A DNA stretch of 50,002 bases from Shigella phage phiL. The notes below the pieces were generated by a model. It was not told where the DNA came from. It ran no database searches and was given only the letters and a program-made list of their open reading frames with translations. The first letter of the stretch is position 1. Every line of letters starts with the position of its first letter. The position numbers and the translations under genes are program-made. Of the stretch, positions 2,825-36,074 are shown piece after piece. The stretch lies in the sequence record PP134913; one strand, given 5' to 3'.

Positions 2825-3580
2825 ATGTTGGCAGGGTATGATTCATCACATCAACCAATCAGTATGGGATTTGCAATGAAACTAATTTGGTCACTATTCG
2901 ACGGTTCCGGCCTTGCTGGTCATGAACTGGCTAAGCAAGGTCATAAGGTGATGTGCTTCAACTTTGACGGGGCCGATCACGGAGATTATGCAAAGTACAA
3001 TGCCCGGGTAGAGCATCCGAATATTGAGTATGTGAACGTCTTCATTGATGATAAGTTCGAACGTGATGCGATCGCTGGTGTGTATGGCAAGCCGGATTTA
3101 ATCATGGCCTTTCCTCCATGCACTGACCTAGCTGTTAGTGGCGCTCGTCACTTTGCAAGTAAGCGTGAGCGCGATCCGTTATTCCAGGAGAAGGCTGTTG
3201 CAACCGCACGGATTGCTGCGAATATTGGCGACGCCCTGGGCGTGACCTACATCATTGAGAATCCGGTTAGCGTTCTGTCATCTGCCTGGAGAAAACCAGA
3301 TCACTCATTCAATCCCTGGGAGTATGGCGGCTATCTTCCCGAGAATGACTCACACCCCTGGTTCCCGATGTATATTGCGCCGCGCGATGCTTACCCGAAA
3401 AAGACGTGTCTTTGGACCTCGGACGATTTTGTCATGCCGGAGAGAAAGCCAGTAAGCCTGCCTGACGGGTACTCTGCGCAGCAAAACAAGCTGGGCGGCA
3501 AGTCGGCAAAGACAAAGCTGATACGATCCTTGTCGCCGCGTGGATTTTTCAAAGCGATCGCAAATAGCACTTTTTGTTAA
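2825..3580 (+). CDS. compact DNA cytosine-C5 methyltransferase-like protein (251 aa)
   Basis: Ordered motifs LFDGSGLAG (motif I-like), FPPCTDLAVSG (PC catalytic motif), IIENP (ENV-like); start codon uncertain. Confidence 0.5.
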   Translation: MLAGYDSSHQPISMGFAMKLIWSLFDGSGLAGHELAKQGHKVMCFNFDGADHGDYAKYNARVEHPNIEYVNVFIDDKFERDAIAGVYGKPDLIMAFPPCTDLAVSGARHFASKRERDPLFQEKAVATARIAANIGDALGVTYIIENPVSVLSSAWRKPDHSFNPWEYGGYLPENDSHPWFPMYIAPRDAYPKKTCLWTSDDFVMPERKPVSLPDGYSAQQNKLGGKSAKTKLIRSLSPRGFFKAIANSTFC

Positions 3581-3607
3581 AACTCGATCGGTGTGATTTG
3601 GCATAAT
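3563..3607 (+). promoter_or_regulatory. conserved promoter-like element
   Basis: AATAGCACTTTTTGTTAAA ... CATAAT TACCTCATCGAAACGAG. Confidence 0.5.
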
Positions 3608-3645: not shown

Positions 3646-3981
3646 ATGAAATACGAAAATCGCGGTAACGAAATCATCAAAATCGAAAACGGCGTTGAGT
3701 ACATCATGGTAGCTTGCAAGGTTAACGGCATGGATTCCTTCGTATGGGAAGAAATCAAAACTGAAGACAAAGCTGCTAAATTCCTGACCTGTGTTAACCA
3801 GCCGGACGCGGAACGTGACACCTTCACCCGTTACGGTAAATATGAAATCGTTCGCGAGACTTCATGCTTCTGGTGGGTTAAGCCTAACAGCCAGTACAAA
3901 TTCCCGCGCAAAATAAGCAAGCGCACCATGCGTGAAGCTGGCTTCAAGAAAGCGTATGCCGCTGAGTTCGATATTGATTAA
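3646..3981 (+). CDS. hypothetical protein (111 aa)
   Basis: RBS CAGGAG upstream; promoter element 3563..3607. Confidence 0.5.
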   Translation: MKYENRGNEIIKIENGVEYIMVACKVNGMDSFVWEEIKTEDKAAKFLTCVNQPDAERDTFTRYGKYEIVRETSCFWWVKPNSQYKFPRKISKRTMREAGFKKAYAAEFDID

Positions 3982-4024
3982 TAGCACGAATTGCTAAACG
4001 CCCCGAAGGTGATCGGGGTATAGT
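3980..4024 (+). promoter_or_regulatory. conserved promoter-like element
   Basis: AATAGCACGAATTGCTAAA, 22 nt containing hairpin CCCCGA/TCGGGG, TATAGT. Confidence 0.55.
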
Positions 4025-4957: not shown

Positions 4958-5097
4958 TTTATATTCACACTTTCTATACTGGCAAATTTAACAGCGTAAA
5001 AAATGTTCGCGTTTACGATAGTCACCAAAAAGCAATGATGCAGAAAGTAGTTCTAGGTGGAACAATCAAAGAGTGTAAAGTAATTTCCGAGTACTGA
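4954..5097 (+). CDS. small hypothetical protein (47 aa)
   Basis: ATGA overlap with upstream stop; not in ORF track. Confidence 0.3.
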   Translation: MIYIHTFYTGKFNSVKNVRVYDSHQKAMMQKVVLGGTIKECKVISEY

Positions 5098-5141
5098 TAG
5101 CACTAATTGCTAAAGACAATAAATAGGGAGTAAGGTATATT
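5097..5141 (+). promoter_or_regulatory. conserved promoter-like element
   Basis: GATAGCACTAATTGCTAAAG ... TATATT within hairpin GGGAGTAA/TTACTCCC. Confidence 0.5.
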
Positions 5142-5615: not shown

Positions 5616-5659
5616 ATAGCACGATTTGTTAATATTTCCGTAAGGTCATTTGATAAAGT
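5615..5659 (+). promoter_or_regulatory. conserved promoter-like element
   Basis: AATAGCACGATTTGTTAAT ... TAAAGT. Confidence 0.45.
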
Positions 5660-5686: not shown

Positions 5687-6112
5687 GTGAACGCAATGAA
5701 ATCCATCAAACTTAAATGTACTTCCGCAGACAAAATCACAGGATTTGAAGTTAACAACCTGTACAAAGGTCGAGAGCGCTACGATGGCACTCGTGAGGTT
5801 AAGTTAAAGTGCGGTAAGTATTTAAAACTTGATAAGCATGATGAATTACAGATTCACGGATCTGATGAAATCTTCTTCGCAAAATTCACTGAACTTAAAA
5901 CAAAAACACTCAAGTGTACCGGGCTTGACCATCGCAACCCAATGAAAAAATCATTCAAAGTTGGCAAGCGTTACCAGGTGGAAAGCGGTCGCGCTCTCGG
6001 TGGAGTGGCTGGTTACATCTTTGATGAGGACGGTTGCCGCTGGACATTATTCCGCGAAGAGGTTGGTTTTAGTATTGCTGACGGCACAACCTTTGAGGCC
6101 AAATACTTATAA
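5687..6112 (+). CDS. hypothetical protein (141 aa)
   Basis: RBS CAGGAGTG; promoter element 5615..5659. Confidence 0.5.
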   Translation: MNAMKSIKLKCTSADKITGFEVNNLYKGRERYDGTREVKLKCGKYLKLDKHDELQIHGSDEIFFAKFTELKTKTLKCTGLDHRNPMKKSFKVGKRYQVESGRALGGVAGYIFDEDGCRWTLFREEVGFSIADGTTFEAKYL

Positions 6113-6114
6113 CC

Positions 6115-6159
6115 AATAGCACTTTTTGCAAAACGCGTGTACCATTGGCGGTGTATCAT
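6115..6159 (+). promoter_or_regulatory. conserved promoter-like element
   Basis: AATAGCACTTTTTGCAAAA ... TATCAT in hairpin CGGTGT/ACACCG. Confidence 0.5.
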
Positions 6160-6188
6160 TCACACCGTCAACTAAGGAGTTTATTGTG

Positions 6189-7757
6189 ATGTTTAATATT
6201 AAGCCAAAACTGAATTACCAACAGATTATTGAGATCGCAAATAGCACTGGAGTGAATCCGGTGGCGATCGCAATTCGTGAAAACAGTTACGGGGATTCAG
6301 TTTCTTTTTGGCAAGATCCGATCGATATCAACAGCGGAAACGATAAGTTCCCTCTGATTTCGTTAGGTGGCGATAACCTGGTATTCGAATATGCAAAAGC
6401 AAAAGCTGAATCAGTCCAGTTCCCGGTTTCATCCGCGTATGCTCATTTTATCGGTTGCATATCAGCCGCGATGCTCGGGAAGTTTTGGGTGCAATATCAT
6501 GGAGAAGAACAGCCGACAGCGCTTTACATGGTAATTAGTCAGCCACCATCAACAGGTAAATCAGCGATTAACTCAGCGGCGATTACACCTATGCGTGCGG
6601 AGATTCAGCGACTGAATGAAGAGCGCAAAAAGGAACGTATCCGTTTAACCAGTCAGCTACGTCAGGTCGAGAAGGAAATAAAAAACGATCCGAAGGGTAA
6701 CACGACGGCGGCTCTGTACGAGGACAAAGAAAAACTGGAAGAGAAGATCAAGAAGATGGCTGATATTGTTTTCGCGGTATCAGATCCTACACCTGAAGGT
6801 CTTGCGAAAGTGGCGGCAGTGCAAGGTCACTTTTCCGTAATATCTGACGAGGCAACGGCAATCAATACATTGCTCGGGCTTACGTATGGCGGTTCAGATA
6901 AGAAATCTAACAGTGAGCTTATCCTTAAGGCGTGGGATAAAAACCATATGGAGGTCGCGCGTTCAAATCAGGACAACAACTTATCTCTTTGCCCGGTCGG
7001 TTCGATCTGCGTCATTGCGCAGGATGAAACAATCAATGGTATCATGGATGCAGGCCAGCGAGGTATCGGTGTATCCGAACGTTTCTTGTTGGTTCGCGAG
7101 GAGCCGCTTTTAGGTACTCGTATTCTTTGTGATGAAAATGGCGATGCGCTGTATAAGGAAGTCGATCGAGGATTGGTTAGTAAATATTATCGACTCGTGC
7201 ACAACATCATGAAGGAGGACAACGTTGTTCTCTCTGTGAGCCGTAATGCTATGCGTGAATTAAACCTTGCTCGCCAGGAGATGGAGCCTGATTTCGCTGC
7301 CGGGGGGAAATACTCTCACTCAATGCTTCGCGGTCATCTCGGCAAGTTCGATAAGCACGCTTTGCGTATTGCTTCAGTTCTCCACACGATCAAGAATTGG
7401 GAGGGTGAATCACCGAACCGTTCCAACCGTGAGATTGACCTTGAAACAATGCAGGAAGCGATCATGATCTTCAATGAGCTTTCCAGGACTTATCTGTCGT
7501 CTGCCAGCGCTGCCGGGTATGCTGGTGATGAGGCTGAATCTCGTAAGCTGATTGATGTTATCACTGAGATCGCGAAGAAGAACAAAGGCCGCGCACCTAT
7601 TCATAGTATTGTTGCAAAGTGCCGGAACGTTACGCCGTTCAACGGTCAACAGAAAGTATCTGAGCGAATCGACAGCCTTCTGATTACGCTCGAAGAGATG
7701 AACTACACTTGCCGAATTGATGATATTGTTTTCATCAATCCTCGACTGATGGGTTAA
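6189..7757 (+). CDS. P-loop NTPase, function unknown (523 aa)
   Basis: Walker A-like QPPSTGKS and Walker B-like VIAQDE; AAGGAG RBS before ATG 6189; promoter element 6115..6159. Confidence 0.55.
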   Translation: MFNIKPKLNYQQIIEIANSTGVNPVAIAIRENSYGDSVSFWQDPIDINSGNDKFPLISLGGDNLVFEYAKAKAESVQFPVSSAYAHFIGCISAAMLGKFWVQYHGEEQPTALYMVISQPPSTGKSAINSAAITPMRAEIQRLNEERKKERIRLTSQLRQVEKEIKNDPKGNTTAALYEDKEKLEEKIKKMADIVFAVSDPTPEGLAKVAAVQGHFSVISDEATAINTLLGLTYGGSDKKSNSELILKAWDKNHMEVARSNQDNNLSLCPVGSICVIAQDETINGIMDAGQRGIGVSERFLLVREEPLLGTRILCDENGDALYKEVDRGLVSKYYRLVHNIMKEDNVVLSVSRNAMRELNLARQEMEPDFAAGGKYSHSMLRGHLGKFDKHALRIASVLHTIKNWEGESPNRSNREIDLETMQEAIMIFNELSRTYLSSASAAGYAGDEAESRKLIDVITEIAKKNKGRAPIHSIVAKCRNVTPFNGQQKVSERIDSLLITLEEMNYTCRIDDIVFINPRLMG

Positions 7758-7761
7758 TTAT

Positions 7762-8169
7762 ATGCTTCTTCTTTTAGATCTGTTCAGGTTCTGCGAAGGT
7801 TACGACAAATACACTCGTCAGCACATAGCGAAATTTATATACGCCCACAAGGAAAGTGAGCGATTTGCTAAGGCCGCCGGGATGACTCACCGTGAATTTA
7901 CAAGCGCGCTATCTAAGGAGTTTTGCGCTCGTTGCGTTACTGATGGTTACTTGGATCGTAAGGATGGATTTTACTGGTGCAAGGGAAAGATCAAGCGCCC
8001 GGTAATGATGAAGCTGATGTGTATTGATGGCTACAACAATCGATATACGTGGGAAATGATGCATATTGGAGAAATGAGTGATGAGGAATTGTTTGGCGAA
8101 CGTAGAAACGTTGATAGATCGGAACGTCGAATTGTGCGCAAGACTCCAGCTTACGAAAGAAGAATTTGA
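7762..8169 (+). CDS. hypothetical protein (135 aa)
   Basis: Last ORF of plus early block before terminator 8284..8307. Confidence 0.4.
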   Translation: MLLLLDLFRFCEGYDKYTRQHIAKFIYAHKESERFAKAAGMTHREFTSALSKEFCARCVTDGYLDRKDGFYWCKGKIKRPVMMKLMCIDGYNNRYTWEMMHIGEMSDEELFGERRNVDRSERRIVRKTPAYERRI

Positions 8170-8283
8170 ACAAGGATTGCTCAGTCTATTGCTTACTTCT
8201 ATGAGGGCAAATAACGACAGTGAGCACAATCTTTGCGATCAGGAGGGCGAATTACTCCTCCATGTAAAAAGGCACAAATAAGA

Positions 8284-8307
8284 AAGGAGGCTAAGCCTCC
8301 TTTTTTT
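8284..8307. terminator. intrinsic terminator between converging plus early block and lysis cassette
   Basis: Hairpin GGAGGCTAAGCCTCC followed by 7 T. Confidence 0.65.
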
Positions 8308-8695
8308 CGCCCTTACGAATTGAAAAATAAACCAGCAACAGACCAATGAGAACGAGGGTCCAACCAACTATAGGATCATACCAGTTTCCGGGCTTAGTCA
8401 CAGTGATGCTTTCAGCGTTAACCGTGTTAGCCTTAATGGTTGACACTTCAATTGACTTCTTCACGGAAGAGTCAACCTTTCCTACATTGGACTTTTCAAC
8501 TTTAACATCTCGCTTATCTTCGGATTTTGCGGTTACTCCTGCTAATTGCTTTGTGTTCTCCTCTCCAATCTGTGCTGTAACTTCCGGTTTAGATCCGATT
8601 AAACCGCTCAGGGCAGATGGCATCGAGCAACCGGATAGAGAAATAACACCAACAGCCACTACAATCGCAATGCATGTTTTCTTCAGTTTCATCAT
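8291..8695 (-). CDS. unimolecular spanin (N-terminal lipoprotein signal plus C-terminal TM)
   Basis: Lipobox LSGC at N-terminus, hydrophobic segment [13 protein letters not shown] near C-terminus; last gene of lysis cassette. Confidence 0.65.
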
Positions 8696-9180
8696 AATTC
8701 CTTAACGCAATACGCGTATTCTTCAGCGCGTCTGTTCTTGAGTCCTCTAGACACTTCGCGCTTTTTGGTTTTTGGGTTGTAGTAGTATACCCATCGCCAT
8801 AACTGATTGCACGCTTCCCTGTGCTTACCCTGATTTATTAGCTTAAGCATTGTAGAAGATCCGAACGCGCCAGTACCAACGTTGAAAGTAAAGCTATACA
8901 ATGACGCGCGCATCGTTACAGGAATATCAACATTCACCTTTTTGTCTACGTATCTCTGAGCAACGCCGATGTGTTTTATCAACAAAGCATCGCATTCTCG
9001 CTTAGTGTATTTCTTACCAGGTATGACGTCCGGCCCGGTTATTCCGCTGCATACGGTAGGGACTCCGGCGATATCGTAATAAACCTCGTATTCTACACCT
9101 TCGATTCGTTCCAGTAGGGTAGGCGTCAACGTCAAAGCTGCCCCGATCGATGCGCCTATAACGTTATTTTTTAAACTCAT
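8692..9180 (-). CDS. endolysin, GH24 lysozyme-like, possible signal-anchor-release type
   Basis: E-x8-D-x5-T catalytic triad spacing ([19 protein letters not shown]); Gly/Ala-rich weakly hydrophobic N-terminus. Confidence 0.7.
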
Positions 9181-9422
9181 TATCTCCCCCTGATCTTAAG
9201 CGCCTTATTTAGATCGCCATCGTTTAACGCTTCCTGAATTGCCTTGCTATCGCGATACTTCCAGTACGCTCCCCAAGCGCCAAAAAGCAGAAAGCAAATG
9301 AATGTAGCGCCAGCAATATAAAGTTGACCTGTCGCTGCCCCCACCAACGAAGCACCGCCCGTGCTTGACGTAGCTGCTGTTAAAAATTCTTTCATAATCT
9401 CACCATATATTTTTTTGAACAA
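9180..9422 (-). CDS. holin (80 aa)
   Basis: Small membrane protein with charged C-terminus directly upstream of endolysin. Confidence 0.55.
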
Positions 9423-9514
9423 GTGAGTCGATTTTAACCTTCAAATTTACTTGATACAACGCAAAAAGGCCAGCATGTAAATCATGCCAGCCTGTAAGGT
9501 GATGAATGATATTG

Positions 9515-9691
9515 TTAATCTATCTCAATAAATTCCAGGTAGTAACCATTCAGAGGTGCTTGGATTACTGAGCCTCTACCGTCGTAAATCTCAAACAATC
9601 CCCCACCGAAATCATAACCAACACTATAGATCTGATTTACGCGGAATGGAAGTGTTTTGGAGTCATTTCGGATGCACTTAACTCGTTTCAT
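9515..9691 (-). CDS. small hypothetical protein (58 aa), not in ORF track
   Basis: ATG 9691 after AGAGG; downstream of promoter element 9723..9767. Confidence 0.35.
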   Translation of the reverse strand: MKRVKCIRNDSKTLPFRVNQIYSVGYDFGGGLFEIYDGRGSVIQAPLNGYYLEFIEID

Positions 9692-9722
9692 GATATGTAG
9701 CCTCTTTGTTTTTGATGTGGTT

Positions 9723-9767
9723 ACTATACCCGAATCCCTTCGGGCGTTTTTATCAATTAGTGCGATC
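9723..9767 (-). promoter_or_regulatory. conserved promoter-like element (degenerate motif)
   Basis: TATAGT plus AACCACATCAAAAAC leader; motif GGATCGCACTAATTGATA. Confidence 0.4.
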
Positions 9768-10908
9768 CTGTCATTTCTGGACGGTAGATGAATCGACCTA
9801 TCTCACCAAATTTCTTGTCGTAAACGATTACCGCCGCCTGACGATATGAGCGCCACCCGCCGCGCGCGGCGTATGCATCCTTCGCTCCTAACTGACCGTG
9901 AACCTCATCGATACCTAACGAGTGTTCAGTGATTGTCTGATGATGCCAGTGACCGCTATGAGTATACACATACTTGCTCTCTCCGAAGTCTGCACGGAAG
10001 TCTGCCGCCATCGCTGCAAGTCGCGTGTCTGCCTTTTTCATAGTGTGCCCGTGAGTGTATCCCAATAAGGTGTTTCCCCATCGAGTCTTATGCAGAATCA
10101 TAGGGCTAACGTCAACGAATACTCGCGGCTCGTCTTCATAATATGCCGACATTGCAGCACGTAGCCAAATCATACCGGCCTGGTCGTGGTTCCCTTCAAT
10201 AATCTGAACCTCGACTTCTTTGTGTTTCATAAGCATTTTGTCGATAGCGCGACGCACAGAACGGATCGCAACATGCACCAATTTTGCGTATCGTGAATCC
10301 TGATCCAGAACGTGACCGCTTGCCGGGGTAACAGCATCAAGACCGTCCGAGTGAAGGAAGTCACCGCCAATTAACAGAACAGCCTTCTCTGCGTTAGGGG
10401 CAATATCGATCGCGTAATTGAAGAAGTCGCCAAGCACTTTTTCAGCTACGTCGGTAGAGTAGTTCTCTCCGCATTCATGTTTGTGAGCAAGCGCACCAAT
10501 ATGAAGATCGAATACCGGATAGAGTGCCAGCTTACCAATCGCTGTCGTAAGCCCTTGCGAGGTTAGTAGCTCGGTTGGCTTTGCTCGCGGCAGGTCTTCA
10601 CAGAATGCAATACGCGCCGCTTCCATCATTGCCGCAATCTTCTCACGGTCCTGATCGGTTTTTACCCAGCGCACTACCTCGGTCCCATCGCCGCGAATCA
10701 TCGTCGACGTGCCTTTTACCATGAATCCCTCTGGCACGTTTTTAGCAACATGCTCGTTACCGTGAAAATGACCTTCTTTTGCCAGCTTTGCATGGCGCGC
10801 TTCAACAGTGCGAATGTGCATACCGTATTTTTCCGCGATTTCGCGAAGTGTTAGGCCGCTCATGCGCTCTTCAATAAGTTGCTCGGTGGTGATTTTAGCT
10901 TGTGACAT
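9757..10908 (-). CDS. metallophosphoesterase with N-terminal HTH domain
   Basis: Calcineurin-like motifs DLH, GDFLH, GNHD, GHTH, GHWH; N-terminal LTLREIAEKYG HTH. Confidence 0.65.
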   Translation of the reverse strand: MSQAKITTEQLIEERMSGLTLREIAEKYGMHIRTVEARHAKLAKEGHFHGNEHVAKNVPEGFMVKGTSTMIRGDGTEVVRWVKTDQDREKIAAMMEAARIAFCEDLPRAKPTELLTSQGLTTAIGKLALYPVFDLHIGALAHKHECGENYSTDVAEKVLGDFFNYAIDIAPNAEKAVLLIGGDFLHSDGLDAVTPASGHVLDQDSRYAKLVHVAIRSVRRAIDKMLMKHKEVEVQIIEGNHDQAGMIWLRAAMSAYYEDEPRVFVDVSPMILHKTRWGNTLLGYTHGHTMKKADTRLAAMAADFRADFGESKYVYTHSGHWHHQTITEHSLGIDEVHGQLGAKDAYAARGGWRSYRQAAVIVYDKKFGEIGRFIYRPEMTGSH

Positions 10909-10986
10909 ATTTTAATCCTTACATGATAATGAAATACATTACTGAAAATGAAATTAGCGGTGTTAATACTACAGCAAAATAAAGTT

Positions 10987-11388
10987 TCATGCCACAGCCT
11001 TTAACCAGAATCCTAGATCCGAAGATTTAAACTCAACAAGTTTTCCGTCAACCTCAAGCATCATACTGTTTCTGCCTGGTGAGTAGTAACCTATATGCAA
11101 CTCCTGCTCAATACCGATAGTGCAAAGCACATTAACAAAGTCAGGTGGCAACCAGTCAGAGAAAGGGATTTGTTTAACCTGCCTTTTCCCGATCCATATT
11201 GTCTGGTAGTAATCTGAGTTAATATTTAAGCCTGGAAGGCTTGTTGCTCTTTGCGTTCTTTCGTTCTCGCTCAATTCTCTTTCCTTCTTCACGATAAAAC
11301 TCAAGTGACGGGGTTGCTGGCACTCTATGCATTTTTCTCGGCATATCTTCCATAAATGAAATCTTTCCGTTTGATATAATGCTAACAT
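10987..11388 (-). CDS. hypothetical protein (133 aa); start doubtful
   Basis: Overlaps 11219..11491 by 170 nt in another frame; poor RBS at 11388. Confidence 0.3.
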   Translation of the reverse strand: MLALYQTERFHLWKICREKCIECQQPRHLSFIVKKERELSENERTQRATSLPGLNINSDYYQTIWIGKRQVKQIPFSDWLPPDFVNVLCTIGIEQELHIGYYSPGRNSMMLEVDGKLVEFKSSDLGFWLKAVA

Positions 11389-11491
11389 CCTTTATATCGA
11401 AATATTTTGCTATTAGTGCTATATCGTCTGATATTCCGCATTCCTTTGCGTGCTCCCAAACCTCTCGTTTACCTTGTTTTTTTATCAGCAT
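11219..11491 (-). CDS. hypothetical protein (90 aa)
   Basis: ATG 11491 preceded by GGAGA. Confidence 0.45.
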   Translation of the reverse strand: MLIKKQGKREVWEHAKECGISDDIALIAKYFDIKDVSIISNGKISFMEDMPRKMHRVPATPSLEFYREEGKRIERERKNAKSNKPSRLKY

Positions 11492-11678
11492 TGGTTAGTT
11501 TCTCCACGCTTTCAATAAAACACTCAACATCTTTGACTGAGCATAGGTAATAAGCCATTTTAAGGAAGTTAATAGCAATATCCCAATCAAAGTTACCGCC
11601 TTTCTTGTTGGTGATATGAACAGCCATTTTTGCTGACTGTTGAGCGATATTGAAAAAGTTTGCGTTAATGCGTGCCAT
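11469..11678 (-). CDS. hypothetical protein (69 aa)
   Basis: Start moved to second ATG (GAGGA RBS); promoter element 11711..11755. Confidence 0.45.
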   Translation of the reverse strand: MARINANFFNIAQQSAKMAVHITNKKGGNFDWDIAINFLKMAYYLCSVKDVECFIESVEKLTNADKKTR

Positions 11679-11710
11679 CTTTTGATTCCTCATCTTGTCT
11701 CAATGAAATA

Positions 11711-11755
11711 ACTATACCCGACTTTCGCCGGGTATTTTTAGCAATTAGTGCTGAA
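11711..11755 (-). promoter_or_regulatory. conserved promoter-like element
   Basis: TTCAGCACTAATTGCTAAAA ... hairpin ... TATAGT. Confidence 0.5.
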
Positions 11756-11996
11756 CGATCGTATCTGCTTTAAGTTCCTCTACGTCTTTCTGGATAATTG
11801 AAGGCCAATTCTCGATATGTTCATTTTTTATCTCATCGAAAGACATATCAAGAGAACTAGTGAAATCCCACAGTTCGCAACCAATAACATCCTTAGTCAA
11901 TCCGTTTCGCTCCATAATTTCGCAGCACGTAGCTCGATAAAGTAGCCATAAACCTTGATCAGTTAACTTAACAGGAATCATTTTCTCGTTCATCAT
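11745..11996 (-). CDS. hypothetical protein (83 aa)
   Basis: ATGA overlap with Dam gene stop. Confidence 0.5.
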   Translation of the reverse strand: MMNEKMIPVKLTDQGLWLLYRATCCEIMERNGLTKDVIGCELWDFTSSLDMSFDEIKNEHIENWPSIIQKDVEELKADTIVQH

Positions 11997-12706
11997 ACTT
12001 TCCTTACTTTTGCGCGCTTGTTTTTAACCGAAGGGCAAATGCTTGTGATTGGGATATAGTGAGTCTGTTGAACCTCACCCTCTTTCAGTTCGCGCATAAT
12101 GAAAATTACCGAACCTTTGTTATTGCCGTCAACCGCCTTTCCTGTTTCGCCGGATATGAACGCCAGACGACCTGAACGTGCGTACTCGTTCCCGTCGATA
12201 TCCTCAGTCAAATCCGCTTCAATCCAGATAATCTCAGCCGCGTGCTGTCGTGCCTCAGTAAACCACGCTGTAGAATTATCGGCAGGCAACAGAATATCAA
12301 TCTGGTTGTTGTGCTCCATTTGCTCGATCGCCTTCTTGACGAATATATCAGGTCGACTGTAAGGAGGATTTAACCATACATGCTTATTTTTACCCCACCA
12401 ACGTTTTAAGCAGTTTGTTTCCTGAGAATAGAACTTCTCGCAAACTTTATTTTCTTTACTTGCCGCAGCGTCGAGATCATATTTTCCATAGCGCCCCTCA
12501 AGGTATGCAATAACCTCTCGTGGAGTTGACCATAAATCACGAACTGCGTCAGGGGTATTTGTTCCCTTATATCGACGACCTGAAATCTCTTTGCAGGTTG
12601 GCGTTTTTAGCGCCTGATAATAACCGCCTGATGCTATTGCTTCGCGAGTGAATGAGCAACCAGTATCTGCAAAGTCGATGGTTTCAATATCATTGAAGTC
12701 TTTCAT
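11993..12706 (-). CDS. dam: DNA N6-adenine methyltransferase (phage Dam-type)
   Basis: NPPY catalytic motif (WLNPPYSRPD); size and position typical of T1-like Dam. Confidence 0.75.
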   Translation of the reverse strand: MKDFNDIETIDFADTGCSFTREAIASGGYYQALKTPTCKEISGRRYKGTNTPDAVRDLWSTPREVIAYLEGRYGKYDLDAAASKENKVCEKFYSQETNCLKRWWGKNKHVWLNPPYSRPDIFVKKAIEQMEHNNQIDILLPADNSTAWFTEARQHAAEIIWIEADLTEDIDGNEYARSGRLAFISGETGKAVDGNNKGSVIFIMRELKEGEVQQTHYIPITSICPSVKNKRAKVRKV

Positions 12707-12733
12707 TTTTAGTCCTCTCGTTTTGGTGAAATA

Positions 12734-12779
12734 ATAATGCCAGATTCCATTCCGGCAGTTTTAACAAAAAGTGCTATTT
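12734..12779 (-). promoter_or_regulatory. conserved promoter-like element upstream of Dam gene
   Basis: AATAGCACTTTTTGTTAAAA ... CATTAT ... CAAAACGAGAGG leader. Confidence 0.5.
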
Positions 12780-13190
12780 CATCATTTCGTAGATTGAGAT
12801 CTTGAATTGCGCGAATCCGTATGCGACGGCAGAGAAGCCGCCACGCTCCCGGACCTTTCGAAGAAACTCCCTTTGCTTGTCGCTGACTGGTGACGCCTTT
12901 CCTTTGCCTGACTTATTAACCCGCTTTAGTTCTATTGCTGCAAACGGATATTTTGAGTTGACACCAATCAGGATAACGAAGTCTGACACGCCTTTAAGTA
13001 ATCCAGCCTGTTCATCCCTTAGTGCCGATGTGATTGTTTTTTCACCTTCATTGACGGTGTGCCAAAATAGAAGGTGAGGGAAATTGTATTTCAACCAGGA
13101 CACGCAATCCACCTGATGAGCATCCTCCTTTCGAATGTCGCTGGGATCTCGCTCGTAAAACTCTAAGTAATCTCCTTTGTCTGTAATCAT
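12774..13190 (-). CDS. VRR-NUC domain nuclease
   Basis: PD-(D/E)xK-type residues (SDFVILI ... AIELK); ATGA overlap with helicase stop. Confidence 0.65.
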   Translation of the reverse strand: MITDKGDYLEFYERDPSDIRKEDAHQVDCVSWLKYNFPHLLFWHTVNEGEKTITSALRDEQAGLLKGVSDFVILIGVNSKYPFAAIELKRVNKSGKGKASPVSDKQREFLRKVRERGGFSAVAYGFAQFKISIYEMMK

Positions 13191-15205
13191 TGCGGGATAT
13201 CCTCCATACCGAAATCTTTACGTGAAATAATATCTTCCTTCTTCTGGTTGCGTCGGTGTGTGACTCGTACCGGATGAGCAATATGATGTGAGTACTGCAC
13301 GATCTTGATTGCGTTCTTCATTCCGATAAAGTAGCGACGCATTTTAGGATCTGACACATGAGGCAATACGCCCTTCGTTTTCCATAGCGTACCGCAAATC
13401 TTAGAGTCGGACTCAGGGAAGAATTTTTCATACGCCTTGAACTCATCACCATCATCGTTAATCAGCGTGTATTTGTATATCACGCCCTTTTGGTTTTTGG
13501 TTAGCGTTACCTCAAAATTCTTGACCTCATACCAGTCATTCTTGGTGTACGCCTTGCCGGACAATTTCAGGTTAGGATCGACAAGTGACACATCACAGCA
13601 ACGACAAACTCGGGCGACAACGTCATTCTCGGCACCACATCCTTTAACAAGAATTTTCCCGGTTCGCTCATCAACCTGATCCTCGCAAATCTGAGAAGTC
13701 CAGAAGTGATCGCATCTCTCACCGTCTATAACGTTAACGCATCGGCGAGCGTAGAAGCTATTAACGCAACCACACTTAGGACACGTTTTCGGGTCTTTGC
13801 CGTTTTCAAAACGCTTCTGGAATTGCGCCTGCTCAAGTATCGGATCGAAATAAAGTTGGCCCAACTCATCCATAGTGCCAGCGAAATCCCATACCAGATG
13901 GTCTTGCTTAACCATTCCTTCAGCAACCTGCCATGATTTAAGCAGCCGCATACCCCTACCCAAAAGCTGAATCAACAGAGTGAGAGATCCTATCTTGCGG
14001 AGTATGACACTAAAATCCCAATTTGGAACGTTAACGCCAGTAGTGAGCGCCATTACCTGAAAGGTGTATTTAATCTTCCCGGCCCTTACATCGTCCAGAA
14101 TCTTCTTGCGCGTTTTGGTGTCTGTGTCGCCAGTGATGATTGCATAGGTGCTTCCTGGAGGCAGTGCTGCCGCCGCCTCTTTACAGTGACGCACCCCAGC
14201 GCATGTAATCAGAACCGCGTTACGCTCTTCAGCCTTTTTGGCGACCATTTGCATGATTCGCTGAGTAAGAGATTTATCATGAAGGATCTCATCTTCCATT
14301 GCCTTCATATCTTTCTCTGTAAAGTCCTGTACGCCGTCCTCGCTTGATGCCTTGAACTTATCCAGATCGTAGTGTACGCCGTCAGTTGAACCGAATATCG
14401 TCGGCACAACAGATCCGAACTCAATCAGATAGTTTGTGTCGATATCAGTTACTCGCTCACGCCAGAATCCCAGCGCTTTATGATTCTCTACCAGAATAGG
14501 AACTACACCCCGAAATTCAGATCCGGTCATACCAAATATTCTGAGATCGTGACCGTGAACCTTTTTACAGCGCCGCATCATTTCCATGATTACGATCGTG
14601 TACTGACTGCGCTTGGTTCCAAGTAAAGGTTTTCCATCATTACCAATCATGGGGACATCTCCGTCCATGATAACTTTCCCTTTTTCTCCCCTCATCTGTT
14701 CCATCGTTTCCTTGCCTTCTATTGCTTGCGCAAGGTCTTCCCAATCCACCTGGTGACATTCGTCGATCCCAATTACATGCGGGACAAAATCAGCCAACTC
14801 ATTGTCGAGGCCATTTGCAACCGTACCCTCAGAGCCAACCACGATCGGGAAGTAGCAGGACTTGATTCCAAGCGATGCTGAGAAGATGGAGTTCGTTACC
14901 CCGAAGTTGTCGATCTCCTCACTATCCTGATCGACAATCTCACCCTGCCGGGCAAGCACAAGCATTTTCAGGCCCATTTTTTGACACTGCTTTGCCACCA
15001 TAGCGAATATGATTGTTTTACCCGCAGATACTGACGCTTTAACAAAGAATGGATGCTCGTAATTTGACAGGCGTTTTGCGATCTCGGCATAAGCAACAAC
15101 CTGATACGGATAAGGAACGACCTCACCGACAGTAAATCGTTCTTGAGTGCGTTTTATATAGTCCTCGCCAAGTAATGCGATTTGCTTCTTGATGTTAATT
15201 GTCAC
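13187..15205 (-). CDS. SF2 DNA helicase with C-terminal Cys-rich region
   Basis: Walker A SAGKT, DECH box, C-terminal CPKCGC...C...C cluster. Confidence 0.8.
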   Translation of the reverse strand: MTINIKKQIALLGEDYIKRTQERFTVGEVVPYPYQVVAYAEIAKRLSNYEHPFFVKASVSAGKTIIFAMVAKQCQKMGLKMLVLARQGEIVDQDSEEIDNFGVTNSIFSASLGIKSCYFPIVVGSEGTVANGLDNELADFVPHVIGIDECHQVDWEDLAQAIEGKETMEQMRGEKGKVIMDGDVPMIGNDGKPLLGTKRSQYTIVIMEMMRRCKKVHGHDLRIFGMTGSEFRGVVPILVENHKALGFWRERVTDIDTNYLIEFGSVVPTIFGSTDGVHYDLDKFKASSEDGVQDFTEKDMKAMEDEILHDKSLTQRIMQMVAKKAEERNAVLITCAGVRHCKEAAAALPPGSTYAIITGDTDTKTRKKILDDVRAGKIKYTFQVMALTTGVNVPNWDFSVILRKIGSLTLLIQLLGRGMRLLKSWQVAEGMVKQDHLVWDFAGTMDELGQLYFDPILEQAQFQKRFENGKDPKTCPKCGCVNSFYARRCVNVIDGERCDHFWTSQICEDQVDERTGKILVKGCGAENDVVARVCRCCDVSLVDPNLKLSGKAYTKNDWYEVKNFEVTLTKNQKGVIYKYTLINDDGDEFKAYEKFFPESDSKICGTLWKTKGVLPHVSDPKMRRYFIGMKNAIKIVQYSHHIAHPVRVTHRRNQKKEDIISRKDFGMEDIPQ

Positions 15206-15219
15206 GGCTATTTAATCCT

Positions 15220-15248
15220 TTGAATCGTTGTATCGTTTACGCTATAAT
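15220..15248 (+). promoter_or_regulatory. sigma70-like promoter TTGAAT-N17-TATAAT for Cro-like gene
   Basis: Near-consensus hexamers with 17-nt spacer, about 50 nt upstream of ATG 15300. Confidence 0.6.
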
Positions 15249-15267
15249 ACACGACATACAGTAAACG

Positions 15268-15286
15268 TTTTTAGCAAAAATTGCTA
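15268..15286 (+). promoter_or_regulatory. perfect palindromic motif copy in leader of Cro-like gene
   Basis: TAGCAAAAATTGCTA between -10 (15243..15248) and RBS. Confidence 0.5.
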
Positions 15287-15299
15287 CAGGAGAATTAAG

Positions 15300-15752
15300 A
15301 TGAATATGCAACGTATCGCAGAGTCAACTGGTGAAATCGATAAACGTCACATTAATGGTAACAACGGAACGCGACGCGGTAAAGACAAAAAGCCTCGCCA
15401 GCGCTGCGGCTTCTATATTCATAAAGAAGAAACACGAGCGGGACTGCGAGCGCGACTTGACGCTCTTATTGAATATTACGGCGGCCCAGCGGCCTGCGCA
15501 AAAGCTCTGAAGGTTAGCAATCAGACCGTGCAAGGATGGAAAGATCGCAACATGATTTCGTGGCAAGGTGCTGAAGCTGCGCATCGTGCTTACCGCCGTC
15601 AGGGGTGTAAAGGATTCCGCGCCGCATGGCTGCGATTCGACCTGAAGTTTGACGGTAACGGAAAATGCCTTGAGAAGAGATGCAAGAATAAGAAATTTAT
15701 GCGCGTCGTGAAGAAGGAAGATATCGGAACGACCAATAGCATTTTTAGTTAA
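15300..15752 (+). CDS. Cro/YdaS-like HTH DNA-binding protein
   Basis: GGPAACAKALKVSNQTVQGWKDRN HTH resembling YdaS/Cro family; AGGAGA RBS; own sigma70-like promoter. Confidence 0.55.
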   Translation: MNMQRIAESTGEIDKRHINGNNGTRRGKDKKPRQRCGFYIHKEETRAGLRARLDALIEYYGGPAACAKALKVSNQTVQGWKDRNMISWQGAEAAHRAYRRQGCKGFRAAWLRFDLKFDGNGKCLEKRCKNKKFMRVVKKEDIGTTNSIFS

Positions 15753-15756
15753 AACA
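15737..15756 (+). promoter_or_regulatory. motif copy at 3' end of Cro-like gene
   Basis: AATAGCATTTTTAGTTAAAA followed by terminator hairpin. Confidence 0.4.
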
Positions 15757-15761
15757 ATAGA

Positions 15762-15797
15762 CGCGTAGCGGGTTAACATCCTTCTACGCGTTTTTTA
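15762..15797 (+). terminator. intrinsic terminator after Cro-like gene
   Basis: Hairpin CGCGTAG...CTACGCG followed by TTTTTTATTT. Confidence 0.5.
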
Positions 15798-15812
15798 TTT
15801 GGAGATCTGGAA

Positions 15813-16748
15813 GTGAACGAAGAATTTATGATGTTTCAGAAAGAGGACGTATTGCCGTATATGAAGGGGTTATGGCGTGAGGCGTTCCAGTCCGTATGCG
15901 GATTACCTAACGAGGTTTTCAACAAGAAGCATCAACCTTGCCCTAACTGCGGCGGCAAAGACCGTTTTCGCTGGACTGATAATCTGAATACTCCTGGCGA
16001 CGGCGGCGCGATCTGCAACTCCTGCGGTAACGACTCCGGGATCGGTTGGTTGATGAAGTTAACTGGTATGCCGTATAGCGATTGCATAAACATCCTGGGA
16101 AGATTTCTCGGAAAAGTCCCTCAGGAATACATCGTCAAGGCAAACAAGAAAGCACGCAGGACTCCGGTGTCTGGTGTCAATGTGATGATGGCAGATCATG
16201 AAGCAGTGATGAAAGTAATGGAGCGCACAGAGAAGCGCGTAAACACACCTCTAAGCATGTTTGAATCTCTACCAACTGAATCATTCGACGTTGGCGTAAA
16301 ACGTCGCGATGATGGCAGGGAGGGCGTATTTCACACTATCCCGTGTCAACTTGTACACGAGGACGGTCTTGATGACGAGTTTTGCAATATTTTGATTATT
16401 GATGAAGAAGGAAGGGAATCGTTTTACGCTAAGAAATATACGAGTTGTTCGGTTGCCGTGACTGGTAAAACAGAAAAAGCGATCTACTTATGCCTTAATT
16501 GGATTGATGCTCAGCATATTGCATTTCACACAAAGCAAGAGGTATGGGCCTGCTTCACTCCTGAGAATCTGGAAATGGTTGCATACAGATATAAAGGGGA
16601 TCGAGAAGTAAGGGTTGCGTGCGAACCTTCAGACAAGGAGACTTTATACATGGCAGACGACCGACAATTAAAAATAATCATCCCAAATCCTGGAGGATAC
16701 CGCTCAGGGATGCAAGCCAAGTTATTCTCAGCGAGTGACCTACTCTAA
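15813..16748 (+). CDS. primase-like protein with zinc-binding motif
   Basis: CPNCGG...CNSCG zinc ribbon near N-terminus; follows helicase region. Confidence 0.5.
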   Translation: MNEEFMMFQKEDVLPYMKGLWREAFQSVCGLPNEVFNKKHQPCPNCGGKDRFRWTDNLNTPGDGGAICNSCGNDSGIGWLMKLTGMPYSDCINILGRFLGKVPQEYIVKANKKARRTPVSGVNVMMADHEAVMKVMERTEKRVNTPLSMFESLPTESFDVGVKRRDDGREGVFHTIPCQLVHEDGLDDEFCNILIIDEEGRESFYAKKYTSCSVAVTGKTEKAIYLCLNWIDAQHIAFHTKQEVWACFTPENLEMVAYRYKGDREVRVACEPSDKETLYMADDRQLKIIIPNPGGYRSGMQAKLFSASDLL

Positions 16749-16770
16749 CCGCCTTCTGGCGGTTTTTTAT
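16749..16770 (+). terminator. intrinsic terminator after primase-like gene
   Basis: Hairpin CCGCCTTCTGGCGG followed by 6 T. Confidence 0.65.
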
Positions 16771-16786
16771 TGTCCATTGCAAGTCA

Positions 16787-16830
16787 GATAGCACAATGAT
16801 AAAATCATTGTTTAGCAATTCGTGCTATTT
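16787..16830 (+). promoter_or_regulatory. motif copy plus half-site and palindrome CAATGAT-AAA-ATCATTG upstream of tail fibre RBS
   Basis: GATAGCAC, CAATGATAAAATCATTG, TTTAGCAATTCGTGCTATTT ending 8 nt before AAGGAG. Confidence 0.45.
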
Positions 16831-16848
16831 ACTTAAGGAGTTTATACT

Positions 16849-18633
16849 ATGGCTTTATACAGACGCGGTACTGCATCAATGGATGCAGACGGTACGGTTC
16901 ACGGAACAGATACAAAATGGAAAGATCAGCTTGCTCTGATTCGAGTCGGTGCAACTATCGTATTCCTGGAGCAACCAATTAAGCTGGCTGTAATTAGCGA
17001 TATTGTGAGCGACACAGAGCTAAAGGCTATCTCTACGGATGGTCAGACCGCATCTGACGGAAAGTATGTGATCTTGCTTAACGATTCGTTAACTGTTAAC
17101 GGCTTAGCTCAAAACGTTGCCGAGACGCTTCGATACTATCAAAGCAAAGAGACTGAGATCGCGGCAGCTATAGATCTGATAAATCAGCTTGATATGAATA
17201 AACTTGAGCAAATAGTTGCTGATGTGAATAAGGCGAAATCTGATTCTCAAGCTGCGCAAAATCAGGCTGAATTAGCGCGTGACGCAGCCAACGCTGCGCG
17301 TGATGAAACTAACTCAATCAAGAGTCAGACACAGCAGATTGTTGACAGTGCTGTCGGTGGAATTAATGCCGCAAAAGATCAGGCTATCACTGATATCGGC
17401 TCTAAGGAATCATCTGTCATCTCTCACATCGACACGGAAGAGGCTTCGGCTATTCAGGCAATTAATGATGCTAAAGGTGATTTATCGGTTTACGTTAACG
17501 ACGCTCAAACGGCAGCGCAAACGGCAACCTCTGCAAAAAACGATGCTCAGGCAGCGCGTGACGATGCCGTAAGATCAAAAGATGCGGCTTCGGTAAGCGC
17601 TCAAGAAGCTAAAGACGCAGCTAATAGCATTAATGCCGATAATCTTTTAACTAAGGATGGTAATCTTTCTGGTCTTGTGGACAAAAAAGAGTCTAGAAAA
17701 AATATTGGTTTAGGTGAAAATGATGCTGTTAACTTTCTTACTATTAACACCACGGGGGCTATAGGTGCAGGAAGGAACTCATGGAACGGTTCTAACTGGG
17801 GTAGTCAGTCCATATTGTCATCATTGATGATTATGTCACCTGATGGAGTGTCTGAGCCAGGGATTTACGTCAGAAAAAAAAATAGCAGTGATGGATATGC
17901 TGGGACTTTATTATTTTATGAGGGGGCAAACTACTTCGAGACTAACAATAGATTCAGGGCCAATCAGTTTTTATGCCAGAAAACAACTATGGGTTATAAC
18001 CAGATGTGGTCCGCTTCATGCTTTCAAGGAAATGCTTACACCGCTGATAGTGGTGTTGAAAACTATCAATCACTTATTGCTGGATCGTGCGACACTAGAG
18101 GTCAGGGATACTTTGGCGGCGTAGCTTTTGGCATGATGACTACGGGCAATCCTGAATGGCCCAGGGCACAAATATCAGTAGGTGCTCAAGATATGGATGG
18201 AGCAGGCAATATTGGTATGCAAATGCATTTCAGGTTTATTGCTTCAGGGCAAATATCTTACTCTGGACCGCAAGCGGCTGGAAGTTTCCAACAAGTTCCG
18301 GCATCTGACAGAAATATAAAGCACAGCATAAAGGATGATAAATCAAGCATTGCATACAACAATATAAAATCAATGAGATTTAGGAACTTTATATTTAACG
18401 ATGATGAGCAAGAAAGGGTAAGGCGAGGTGTTATAGCTCAGGAGATAGAAGAGATCGACAATCTATATGTTAAGAGAAGGTTGTATGAGAGCCACGAGCT
18501 AAACGGGCCAAAAGTTGAAAGGCTTGAGCTTGATACAACTCCTTTATTGCTTGACACTATGAGAGCTTTGCAGGATACAATAAAGAAAGTTGAAGAGTTA
18601 CAAGAAGAGATAAAAATGTTGAAGTCCAAATGA
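16849..18633 (+). CDS. tail fibre protein with C-terminal intramolecular chaperone (self-cleaving) domain
   Basis: Coiled-coil N-terminal half, Gly-rich middle, C-terminal SDRNIK cleavage motif at residue 486 (nt 18304). Confidence 0.75.
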   Translation: MALYRRGTASMDADGTVHGTDTKWKDQLALIRVGATIVFLEQPIKLAVISDIVSDTELKAISTDGQTASDGKYVILLNDSLTVNGLAQNVAETLRYYQSKETEIAAAIDLINQLDMNKLEQIVADVNKAKSDSQAAQNQAELARDAANAARDETNSIKSQTQQIVDSAVGGINAAKDQAITDIGSKESSVISHIDTEEASAIQAINDAKGDLSVYVNDAQTAAQTATSAKNDAQAARDDAVRSKDAASVSAQEAKDAANSINADNLLTKDGNLSGLVDKKESRKNIGLGENDAVNFLTINTTGAIGAGRNSWNGSNWGSQSILSSLMIMSPDGVSEPGIYVRKKNSSDGYAGTLLFYEGANYFETNNRFRANQFLCQKTTMGYNQMWSASCFQGNAYTADSGVENYQSLIAGSCDTRGQGYFGGVAFGMMTTGNPEWPRAQISVGAQDMDGAGNIGMQMHFRFIASGQISYSGPQAAGSFQQVPASDRNIKHSIKDDKSSIAYNNIKSMRFRNFIFNDDEQERVRRGVIAQEIEEIDNLYVKRRLYESHELNGPKVERLELDTTPLLLDTMRALQDTIKKVEELQEEIKMLKSK

Positions 18634-18636
18634 TAA

Positions 18637-18662
18637 AATCCCCGCATTGCGGGGATTTTTGT
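18637..18662. terminator. intrinsic terminator between tail fibre and SSB genes
   Basis: Hairpin TCCCCGCATTGCGGGGA followed by TTTTTG. Confidence 0.65.
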
Positions 18663-19075
18663 TAGAACGGGATATCATCATCGAAAGTTGATTGAGGATT
18701 TGGCTGTGGCTGTGATTGCGTTCGTTGTTGTTGCTGCGGTGCTCGTTGTTGATTGCTTTGTCCTCGCTGACTAAATACCAACTTAGGGAAATCAGCAGCC
18801 TGCAATGAATTGTAAGTCGTTCCGTTATGCTCACGGGATGAGATCTTCAACGTTTCGCAAGATACTGAAATTACCCGACCAACCTGAAACGCTTCGCGAT
18901 ACCAGTCAGCAAGACCAGGCTTTCCACCATCGCTAAAAAAGAATGTGTAGTTTGTGTATTCGCGATCGCCATCACGAGGCTTGTAGCTTTCTGCCAGTTC
19001 GATGATATAAGTATTTCCTCCGTTACGTTCCAGAATCTTTGGTTCTTTGCGGATCTCGCCAGTGATAATATGCAT
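18662..19075 (-). CDS. ssb: single-stranded DNA-binding protein
   Basis: Gln/Pro-rich linker and acidic C-terminal tail DDDIPF. Confidence 0.7.
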   Translation of the reverse strand: MHIITGEIRKEPKILERNGGNTYIIELAESYKPRDGDREYTNYTFFFSDGGKPGLADWYREAFQVGRVISVSCETLKISSREHNGTTYNSLQAADFPKLVFSQRGQSNQQRAPQQQQRTQSQPQPNPQSTFDDDIPF

Positions 19076-19121
19076 GTTTTTCTCTCCTAAATTTTATGGG
19101 CGACCGAAGCCGCCCTGATGA

Positions 19122-19769: not shown

Positions 19770-19843
19770 CTTAACTTCTCCTGATTGGTGTATGAGGTGC
19801 ATTATAACACCTCATTAATTATTTGTTTAGCTATTTGTGCCGT

Positions 19844-36054: not shown

Positions 36055-36074
36055 AATAGCACTTTTTGTTAAAG
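36055..36074 (-). promoter_or_regulatory. motif copy upstream of capsid gene, followed by terminator hairpin
   Basis: Plus-strand AATAGCACTTTTTGTTAAAG. Confidence 0.45.

Follow-up and report, generated by a model that had tools for sequence, protein, structure and literature searches.

A DUF3987-family AAA+ protein with an MCM-like core as the putative replicative helicase of Shigella phage phiL

The gene, its family and its predicted fold

The window analysed here is a stretch of 50,002 nucleotides (nt) of DNA from Shigella phage phiL (sequence record PP134913), a T1-like coliphage (Tunavirus), and our subject is its plus-strand gene at positions 6189-7757, for which an earlier note, made from the letters alone, had proposed a large P-loop NTPase of early expression. 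The product can be assigned with confidence, on its profile matches, to the DUF3987 family, and its predicted fold, the conservation of its motifs and the ties of its relatives to primases suggest that it is probably the replicative helicase of the phage. The gene itself comprises two features:

6189..7757, plus strand: coding sequence of a DUF3987-family AAA+ protein (MCM-like, helicase superfamily 6, SF6), a putative replicative helicase and ortholog of T1 orf9, identified from the open reading frame (ORF), Pfam, PHROG and an AlphaFold2 model
6174-6179, plus strand: ribosome-binding site AAGGAG, 9 nt 5' of the ATG at 6189, read from the sequence

The ORF extends from the ATG at 6189 to the TAA at 7755-7757 and encodes 522 amino acids, the previously given length of 523 being the number of codons including the stop. 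It is the largest ORF of the plus-strand block that spans approximately 2.8-8.2 kb, as had been noticed before. An in-frame TTG at 6126 offers an alternative start further upstream, which appears unlikely to be used because all homologs share the 'MF' N-terminus.

Over its full length of 1569 nt the gene matches 59 phage records at 90% nucleotide identity or more, all of them Escherichia or Shigella phages of Tunavirus/Drexlerviridae. Identity to T1 is 94% across the whole 1569 nt and identity to Eco_BIFF 96.9%; among the matches listed, values reach approximately 97% (for example, Eco_BIFF and Shfl1), two further records are at least 99% identical, and public protein data include a cluster 99% identical to the phiL protein. 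The T1 ortholog, orf9 (CPTT1_071, AAP49990.1), is labelled 'putative ATPase'; RefSeq calls it 'DNA helicase', and an HHpred note in the T1 record cites similarity to RavA. The T1 and phiL genes are of the same length and have the same downstream neighbor, a gene for a 135-residue helix-turn-helix (HTH)-like protein that is followed by the lysis cassette. Upstream they differ: in T1 the HNH homing-endonuclease gene orf8 lies directly 5' of orf9 and overlaps its start, whereas phiL has in its place a 76-bp intergenic region with an ATAGCAC repeat. T1 orf8 is 540 nt long (T1 2213-2752) and is inserted precisely at the junction of the orf7 homolog with the helicase gene, a position to which 6113-6188 of phiL, devoid of orf8, is equivalent; an HNH gene (7206-7742) is also found just 5' of the DUF3987 gene in a distant relative, L006.

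The Pfam search recovers DUF3987 (PF13148) with an E-value of 2e-42 and a score of 146.2 bits against a cut-off of 27, with residues 78-432 aligned in one stretch to positions 2-355 of the 364-position profile; at E-values up to 1 nothing else was recovered, and neither MCM (PF00493) nor DnaB_C gave a match. The protein also matches PHROG 2373, 'DNA helicase', over residues 3-522 (E 5.9e-234; profile positions 3-515 of 515), and a profile search of 1.84 billion cluster representatives yielded 5777 relatives at E-values of 1e-3 or below, of which 3346 score at 1e-10 or below. Moreover, the signature residues of DUF3987, namely QPxxxGK[ST], SxE, AQ, ERF and the lid GK, are all present. NCBIfam holds no matching model. 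With PADLOC only a match to LmuB at chance level was obtained (E 0.0034), and thus no link to a defense system is indicated; a 2026 paper on Avs, checked for a link to defense sensing, does not mention the DUF3987 family. Whereas the earlier note had found no family that it could name with confidence and had left it to homology whether a well-characterised one would emerge, the profile search leads to a family that has already been classified and one member of which has been assayed (PMC4889955, PMC11724360).

The published record on this family is informative. Kazlauskas et al. (2016) described phage DUF3987 proteins as divergent SF6 helicases distantly related to MCM, predicted a role in replication, and observed that the domain is often fused or adjacent to archaeo-eukaryotic primases (AEP) or DnaG primases and is accompanied by a winged helix-turn-helix at the C-terminus (PMC4889955). 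In the same work, HHsearch linked another DUF3987 protein to PF00493 with 98% probability, and dns of phage N4, which carries a DUF3987 domain, is reported as essential for replication (PMC4889955). Subsequently, Kazlauskas et al. (2018) counted DUF3987 as one of the ATPase domains found in place of MCM, RepA or DnaB in fusions with primases (PMC5862659). The only member with demonstrated activity is AgaPH, a PriCT-DUF3987 protein from a Seonamhaeicola mobile element published in 2025, which, given ATP or dATP, acts as a 5'-3' helicase on forked DNA and on DNA with a 5' tail, is oligomeric by gel filtration, binds its primase-polymerase, and loses its activity upon mutation of Walker A or Walker B (PMC11724360). 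The gene, the family and the likely function of the family are therefore already known from databases and the literature, and their assignment here will not surprise a specialist.

With respect to the fold, the AlphaFold2 model, built on a 21-sequence alignment, has a mean predicted local distance difference test score (pLDDT) of 89 and a predicted template modelling score of 0.87. Behind a short helical N-terminal region, its elements follow in the order strand 113-117, P-loop, helix with a hairpin extension, helix 202-212, strand 214-219, further helices, beta-hairpin 254-267, strand 270-277, helix 279-290 and strand 299-303. In structural comparisons the AAA+ core resembles those of MCM proteins, RavA, BchI and ComM, the clade with a pre-sensor-1 insert, and the matches to ORC/Cdc6 cover only some 80-95 residues, which is consistent with the winged helix alone. 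The model thus points to an AAA+ fold of the MCM-like (SF6) clade. Three other placements were considered and rejected: a core of the initiator/loader type represented by DnaA, DnaC and ORC/Cdc6, and a superfamily 4 (RecA-fold) helicase of the DnaB/T7 gp4 type, both on the fold; and the MCM family proper (PF00493), because of the missing Pfam match, the lack of an N-terminal oligonucleotide/oligosaccharide-binding (OB) fold and zinc-binding region, and a P-loop of the form QPPSTGKS instead of GDPxxxKS. Searches of PDB chains by sequence with the phiL protein and two family profiles returned only matches at chance level, several of them to coiled-coil proteins over the hairpin region; given that no chain is related in sequence even to the family profiles, the family appears to lack a solved structure.

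Motifs of the ATPase core and the charged hairpin

Conservation was counted across 137 representatives of clusters at 50% identity and, in addition, in an alignment of 67 sequences (A2). Invariant or nearly so among the representatives are Q118, P119, K124, S219, E221, R258, Q278, R298, E304 and K386. The motifs and domains to which these residues belong are as follows:

6540..6563, plus strand: Walker A motif (P-loop) QPPSTGKS, residues 118-125, with the family signature QPxxxGK[ST], from conservation and the model
6564..6755, plus strand: charged antiparallel helical hairpin, residues 126-189, extending the P-loop helix, from the model (pLDDT of the block 79-95)
6828..6851, plus strand: strand beta3 and probable Walker B motif HFSVISDE, residues 214-221, from the invariance of E221 and strand 214-219 of the model
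6948..6989, plus strand: beta-hairpin, residues 254-267, with R258 invariant in A2; in the model, strands 254-256 and 265-267 precede strand 270-277
7011..7028, plus strand: VIAQDE, residues 275-280, probable end of strand beta4 with Q278 as sensor 1, from conservation and strand 270-277
7074..7100, plus strand: SERFLLVRE, residues 296-304, predicted MCM-type 'SRF' arginine finger followed by strand beta5 (299-303) and a conserved acid
7167..7514, plus strand: alpha-helical lid, residues 327-442, with invariant K386 and, nearby, R381 and G382, from the secondary structure of the model and conservation
7527..7754, plus strand: C-terminal winged-helix domain, residues 447-522

The P-loop sits after strand 113-117, with the helix starting at residue 122 in the model. 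Its sequence had been regarded as a deviant Walker A; in fact its Q-P pair is nearly invariant in DUF3987 (Q118 in 133 and P119 in 132 of the representatives, with K124 and S/T125 present in all 137) and is a signature of the family. The P-loop of MCM is likewise non-canonical, reading GDPGTAKS in the MCM2 and SsoMCM boxes where DUF3987 has QPxxxGKS.

In the model the P-loop helix is prolonged to 45 residues (122-166) and, past a short turn, a helix of 17 residues (173-189) folds back on it. The content of D, E, K and R is 44% in residues 126-189 against 25% in the whole protein. The distance from K124 to D199, which spans this hairpin, varies between 30 and 82 residues (median 74), and all other inter-motif distances are near-fixed, such as 54-58 residues from E221 to Q278 and 19-20 from Q278 to R298. 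Since the Pfam alignment passes through the hairpin unbroken, the hairpin is part of the family profile, and the sequences of MCM2 and SsoMCM contain no counterpart after the P-loop helix. We therefore describe it as inserted with respect to MCM and characteristic of DUF3987, with a length that varies; it probably serves as a protein-docking arm. The coiled-coil insertion reported previously holds as a charged helical segment, not as a peculiarity of this protein.

The remainder of the core can be read against the MCM box, as given by the MCM2 and SsoMCM sequences, which match PDB exactly. E221 is invariant in all 137 representatives and in all 67 sequences of A2, and S219 is found in 127 of the former. 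Directly before HFSVISDE stands TPEGLAKVAAVQG, which resembles TLEAGALVLADxG of MCM, so that TPEGLAKVAAVQG-HFSVISDE can be set beside TLEAGALVLADRG-VCLIDE of human MCM2. The hairpin EVARSN with R258 likewise faces the pre-sensor-1 hairpin SISKAG of human MCM2, and the modeled strands suggest that residues 254-267 are the counterpart of this MCM hairpin, whose lysine contacts DNA. CVIAQ corresponds to the sensor-1 segment TVIAAAN of human MCM2 (VIAAANP in MCM), and SERFLLVRE to ISRFDILCVVRD / SRFDILCVVRD, the arginine finger and beta5 of the same protein; R298 is invariant, E297 is present in 127 and E304 in 135 of the 137 representatives. Taken together, the collinear order of the motifs with the MCM box and their conservation would place Walker B at 214-221, sensor 1 at Q278, the finger at R298 and a DNA-contacting residue at R258. 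From strand order and conservation, we consider it highly likely that HFSVISDE is the Walker B motif. The earlier assignment of Walker B to VIAQDE is accordingly disfavored: this segment is most likely the sensor-1 strand, with A277 in 126 and Q278 in 136 of the representatives, as opposed to D279 in 67 and E280 in 40 (41 have G here), although D279 and E280 are both invariant within the close Drexlerviridae clade. In the lid, K386 is a possible sensor-2-like residue.

The likeness to MCM thus lies in a collinear series of motifs. It opens with the P-loop and continues with TxExG...G-hhhh-DE, a basic beta-hairpin that precedes strand 4, hhAx(N/Q) and finally S(x)RF, after which come a hydrophobic strand and an acid. 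The differences run both ways. MCM possesses an N-terminal OB-fold/zinc collar and a helix-2 insert, neither of which is seen in the model of the phiL protein, where helix 202-212 passes uninterrupted into strand 214-219 with no hairpin between them; conversely, the phiL protein carries on the P-loop helix a helical hairpin of about 64 residues that MCM lacks. MCM helicases move 3'-5'. The polarity demonstrated for AgaPH is the opposite, 5'-3' (PMC11724360). AgaPH and the phiL protein share the Pfam domain DUF3987 and differ in what surrounds it: AgaPH has an N-terminal PriCT domain and an AEP primase-polymerase as partner, whereas in phiL the N-terminus is short and helical and a zinc-ribbon primase (T7 gp4/DnaG-type) is encoded elsewhere in the genome.

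Primases, gene fusions and the upstream repeat

Two further genes of the window bear on the function of the DUF3987 protein:

15813..16748, plus strand: stand-alone primase that has a zinc ribbon of the T7-gp4 type and lacks a helicase domain, a probable partner, from Pfam Zn_Ribbon_Prim (E 5.5e-16) and PHROG 510
13187..15205, minus strand: superfamily 2 (SF2) helicase (ResIII and Helicase_C), from Pfam, PHROG 16 and T1 orf22

The primase matches PHROG 510, 'DNA primase', only at positions 6-321 of the 667-position profile; the T1-type primase seems to represent the N-terminal half of a family whose members are longer primases or primase-helicases. The phage also encodes Erf and a RecE-like nuclease and, by homology with T1, a single-stranded DNA-binding protein (SSB) and a resolvase. 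Among the genes of the window, Pfam and PHROG annotation recognised no DNA polymerase.

In two relatives whose DUF3987 proteins are 35-36% identical to that of phiL (L004, 8001-15525; L006, 8001-16690), the DUF3987 gene has an SF2 helicase, a RecE-like nuclease and an SSB only a few genes away. The L004 module adds Erf and, next to the DUF3987 gene, an annotated zinc-ribbon primase; L006 has in the matching position an unannotated gene of 289 residues, the same length as the L004 primase. This compact replication and recombination module is split in phiL (6189-20908), where the u-spanin/endolysin/holin genes (8291-9422), an SbcD-like exonuclease (9757-10908) and a Dam methylase (11993-12706) separate the DUF3987 gene from the SF2 helicase.

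Furthermore, relatives of the protein show fusions of the DUF3987 domain to a DnaG zinc finger (P0158), a DnaB N-terminal domain (P0185), a BT4734-type AEP primase (P0245) and the HBD of NrS-1 polymerase (P0252). P0158 (869 residues) places a DnaG CHC2 zinc finger and a DUF6371 region before a DUF3987 domain that is close to the T1 type (E 3.5e-134 to the phiL profile), and P0185 (666 residues) has the DnaB N-terminal domain in front of the DUF3987 motor. In DnaB, the N-terminal domain is the primase-binding domain. Both proteins have the appearance of domain swaps between unrelated helicase motors. BLASTP detected no similarity between the phiL primase and the DnaG-type N-terminus of P0158, and hence the fusion supports a primase-helicase link in general and not orthology with the T1 primase. 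The viral structural neighbors in BFVD are annotated as primase or primase-polymerase. N4 dns and the primase-DUF3987 fusions present the same helicase domain in the replication of phages and mobile elements, and in T1-like phages the domain stands alone with the primase separate (PMC4889955, PMC5862659).

The small genes that flank the helicase gene, 5687-6112 and 7762-8169 (both plus strand), belong to PHROGs 2684 and 2794 of unknown function, with a weak HHpred likeness to the HTH regulator RipR in the T1 record. The latter gene starts 5 nt past the helicase stop codon and is probably translationally coupled to it. Either might act as an origin-binding or accessory factor.

The region upstream of the helicase gene contains one copy of a repeat that recurs throughout the window:

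6116..6159, plus strand: repeat copy ATAGCACTTTTTGCAAAA (6116-6133), followed 20 nt on by the -10-like hexamer TATCAT (6154-6159), which lies between the inverted-repeat arms GGCGGTGT / CACACCGTC
2593-2610, 3564-3581, 3981-3998, 5097-5114, 5616-5633, 6116-6133, 32292-32309 and 36056-36073, plus strand: repeat copies
679-696, 1418-1435, 12760-12777, 16811-16828, 42758-42775, 44589-44606, 46164-46181, 46684-46701, 48231-48248 and 49497-49514, minus strand: repeat copies

The copy ATAGCACTTTTTGCAAAA lies approximately 73 nt, and TATCAT approximately 30 nt, 5' of the ATG at 6189. Allowing one mismatch at most, the window contains 18 copies of the pattern ATAGCAC-N4-TG(C/T)TAAA, where chance would give 0.01; for the most part they lie between genes and point the same way as the genes downstream. 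Most copies are followed, about 20 nt downstream, by a TATAGT-like hexamer inside a short inverted repeat, as in TGCTAAAcgccccgaaggtgatcggggTATAGT at 3981. This repeat, which can also be written ATAGCAC-N4-TTGnTAAA, is already known from phage TLS, where the consensus is aaATAGCACnnnTTGnTAAAA and the distance to the start codons about 76 nt, and it is also present in T1 and Rtp; the TLS report leaves its function open between a stoperator, an enhancer site and an UP element, and the sections drawn on here do not mention a fixed downstream hexamer within an inverted repeat (PMC11447400). At 22 nt, the spacer (TTGCAA-TATCAT in the copy at 6116, TTGCTA-TATAGT generally) is longer than a canonical sigma-70 promoter allows. 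A sigma-70 scan of the window found no more sites than in shuffled sequence, and from the only such site in the neighborhood of the gene (6159-6187) transcripts would begin within the gene itself. RNA folding of the upstream intergenic region is unremarkable (z-score -1.2). In phage SA32RD, the inverted repeat at 2458-2492 (approximately phiL 6146-6180) is labelled a rho-independent terminator, without a T-run. Of the element-type promoter once attributed to this gene, the repeat is therefore real, and the promoter function is not borne out by sigma-70 enrichment and sits uneasily with the terminator label; the element is a possible promoter or regulatory element.

Likely role in phage replication

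Given the family, the predicted fold and the association with primases, we propose that the T1-type DUF3987 protein is the ring-shaped replicative helicase of the phage and works with the stand-alone primase, a reading to which we give a probability of roughly three in four. The protein would assemble into a ring and unwind phage DNA at the fork by ATP hydrolysis, with the separate zinc-ribbon primase, the phage SSB and the host DNA polymerase as its partners; the host polymerase would be used because the phage encodes none. In catalysis, K124 and S125 of the P-loop would act together with E221 as the catalytic glutamate and Q278 as sensor 1, and R298 of SERF would act on the neighboring subunit. 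R258 on the pre-sensor-1 beta-hairpin would face the DNA channel, the charged hairpin off the P-loop helix would dock other proteins, and the winged helix at the C-terminus may contact DNA or partner proteins, with a possible role in recognition of the origin.

Several observations weigh against this proposal. The member of the family that has been assayed is AgaPH and not a T1-type protein. Some 8 kb, including the lysis genes, separate the gene from the primase, and the SF2 helicase is encoded beside the primase, such that either the SF2 or the DUF3987 protein could be the fork helicase. Classical T1 physiology is said to include a dependence on the host elongation dna genes, which would speak against a phage-encoded fork helicase if dnaB were among them. 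The link to MCM itself has its limits: hhalign of DUF3987 alignments against 1, 3 or 7 MCM box sequences, from MCM2, SsoMCM, yeast MCM5 (taken from an alignment) and four unverified human boxes, gave nonsignificant probabilities of 1-2.5% with an MCM side that was too shallow, one run pairing ISDE with IDEFD of MCM; as profile searches also found no PDB relative by sequence, the tie rests on the predicted structure and the published HHsearch. The position of the Walker B aspartate, D220, is occupied by D in 52, A in 47 and S in 31 of the 137 representatives; among active AAA+ ATPases, and with a demonstrated helicase in the family, a Walker B of the form S-x-E is unusual. Finally, no beta2 strand is called by DSSP in residues 190-201, which separate the hairpin from helix 202-212; the numbering of the strands, and with it the placement of Walker B, is accordingly a prediction. 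If strands 214-219, 270-277 and 299-303 were instead beta2, beta3 and beta4, VIAQDE would be Walker B after all; this numbering has the merit that DSSP calls all five strands it requires, in contrast to the one preferred here, and it would agree with the invariance of D279 and E280 in the close Drexlerviridae clade. Family-wide, however, these two residues are poorly kept whereas E221, Q278 and R298 are invariant or nearly so; the order TPEG...G-hhhh-DE, basic hairpin, hhAQ and SxRF-hhhh-[DE] is collinear with the MCM box; and the invariant arginine of SERF would come to stand before beta4, which matches no known AAA+ layout. We accordingly regard this alternative numbering as improbable.

The role of the protein could also be conceived differently. 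It might primarily be a replication initiator, in which the winged helix and the N-terminal region read the origin and the AAA+ ring melts it, then acts as the fork helicase or hands over to one. Such a protein would resemble SV40 large T antigen, papillomavirus E1 and SaPI Rep, and the idea overlaps with that of a replicative helicase. Neither the phiL window nor T1 has a gene recognisable as a separate initiator or loader, and the authors of work on a related phage, noting the absence of a loader or origin-binding protein, suggested that helicases may recognise origins (PMC8004638). Conversely, the winged-helix domains of MCM are not known as origin readers, and T1-like phages have no identified origin or iteron array according to the TLS report (PMC11447400); initiation as the primary role is thus a possibility of distinctly lower standing. 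Between the two lies a combined scheme, a self-loading initiator-helicase in which an MCM-fold ring both recognises the phage origin and opens it through its winged helix and then moves 5'-3', with the hairpin docking the primase and capturing the host Pol III holoenzyme; as a whole we consider this scheme unlikely.

Two further alternatives were considered. A phage without its own polymerase must recruit host replication proteins, and an early-block AAA+ protein with a P-loop could do so as a helicase loader of the DnaC or lambda P type that recruits host DnaB. However, the AAA+ core matches the MCM/RavA/BchI/ComM clade and not DnaA, DnaC or ORC, the resemblance to ORC/Cdc6 being limited to the 80-95 residues mentioned above; relatives carry DUF3987 fused to primase domains or to the DnaB N-terminal domain, where the helicase motor normally sits; and the family member AgaPH unwinds DNA alone (PMC11724360). 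A loader is therefore very improbable, the least credible of the roles considered. A non-fork AAA+ motor, either a ComM-like enzyme of recombination and branch migration in recombination-dependent replication and concatemer formation or a remodeller like MoxR/RavA, with the SF2 helicase unwinding the fork, draws on the HHpred likeness to RavA cited in the T1 record and on the prominent Erf/RecE-like recombination module that accompanies the SF2 helicase. Against it, fusion and adjacency to primases dominate the DUF3987 family, and SF2 helicases are not typical ring-shaped fork helicases, and we hold it to be doubtful. Of the replication initiator or helicase loader suggested in the earlier note, then, the replication P-loop NTPase is retained and the loader is disfavored by the MCM-like core; a helicase, possibly one that also initiates, fits better.

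In the T1 and TLS literature the SF2 gene is 'the helicase' and its product the only protein so named (PMC11447400); the DUF3987 protein is, in our view, the better candidate for the fork helicase. The corrected motif map, with HFSVISDE as the probable Walker B, VIAQ as the sensor-1 strand and SERF as the finger, should be useful for mutagenesis. Should the self-loading initiator-helicase prove true, with a Walker B aspartate that is not conserved, these phage proteins would represent a mechanistically distinct branch of the MCM clade.

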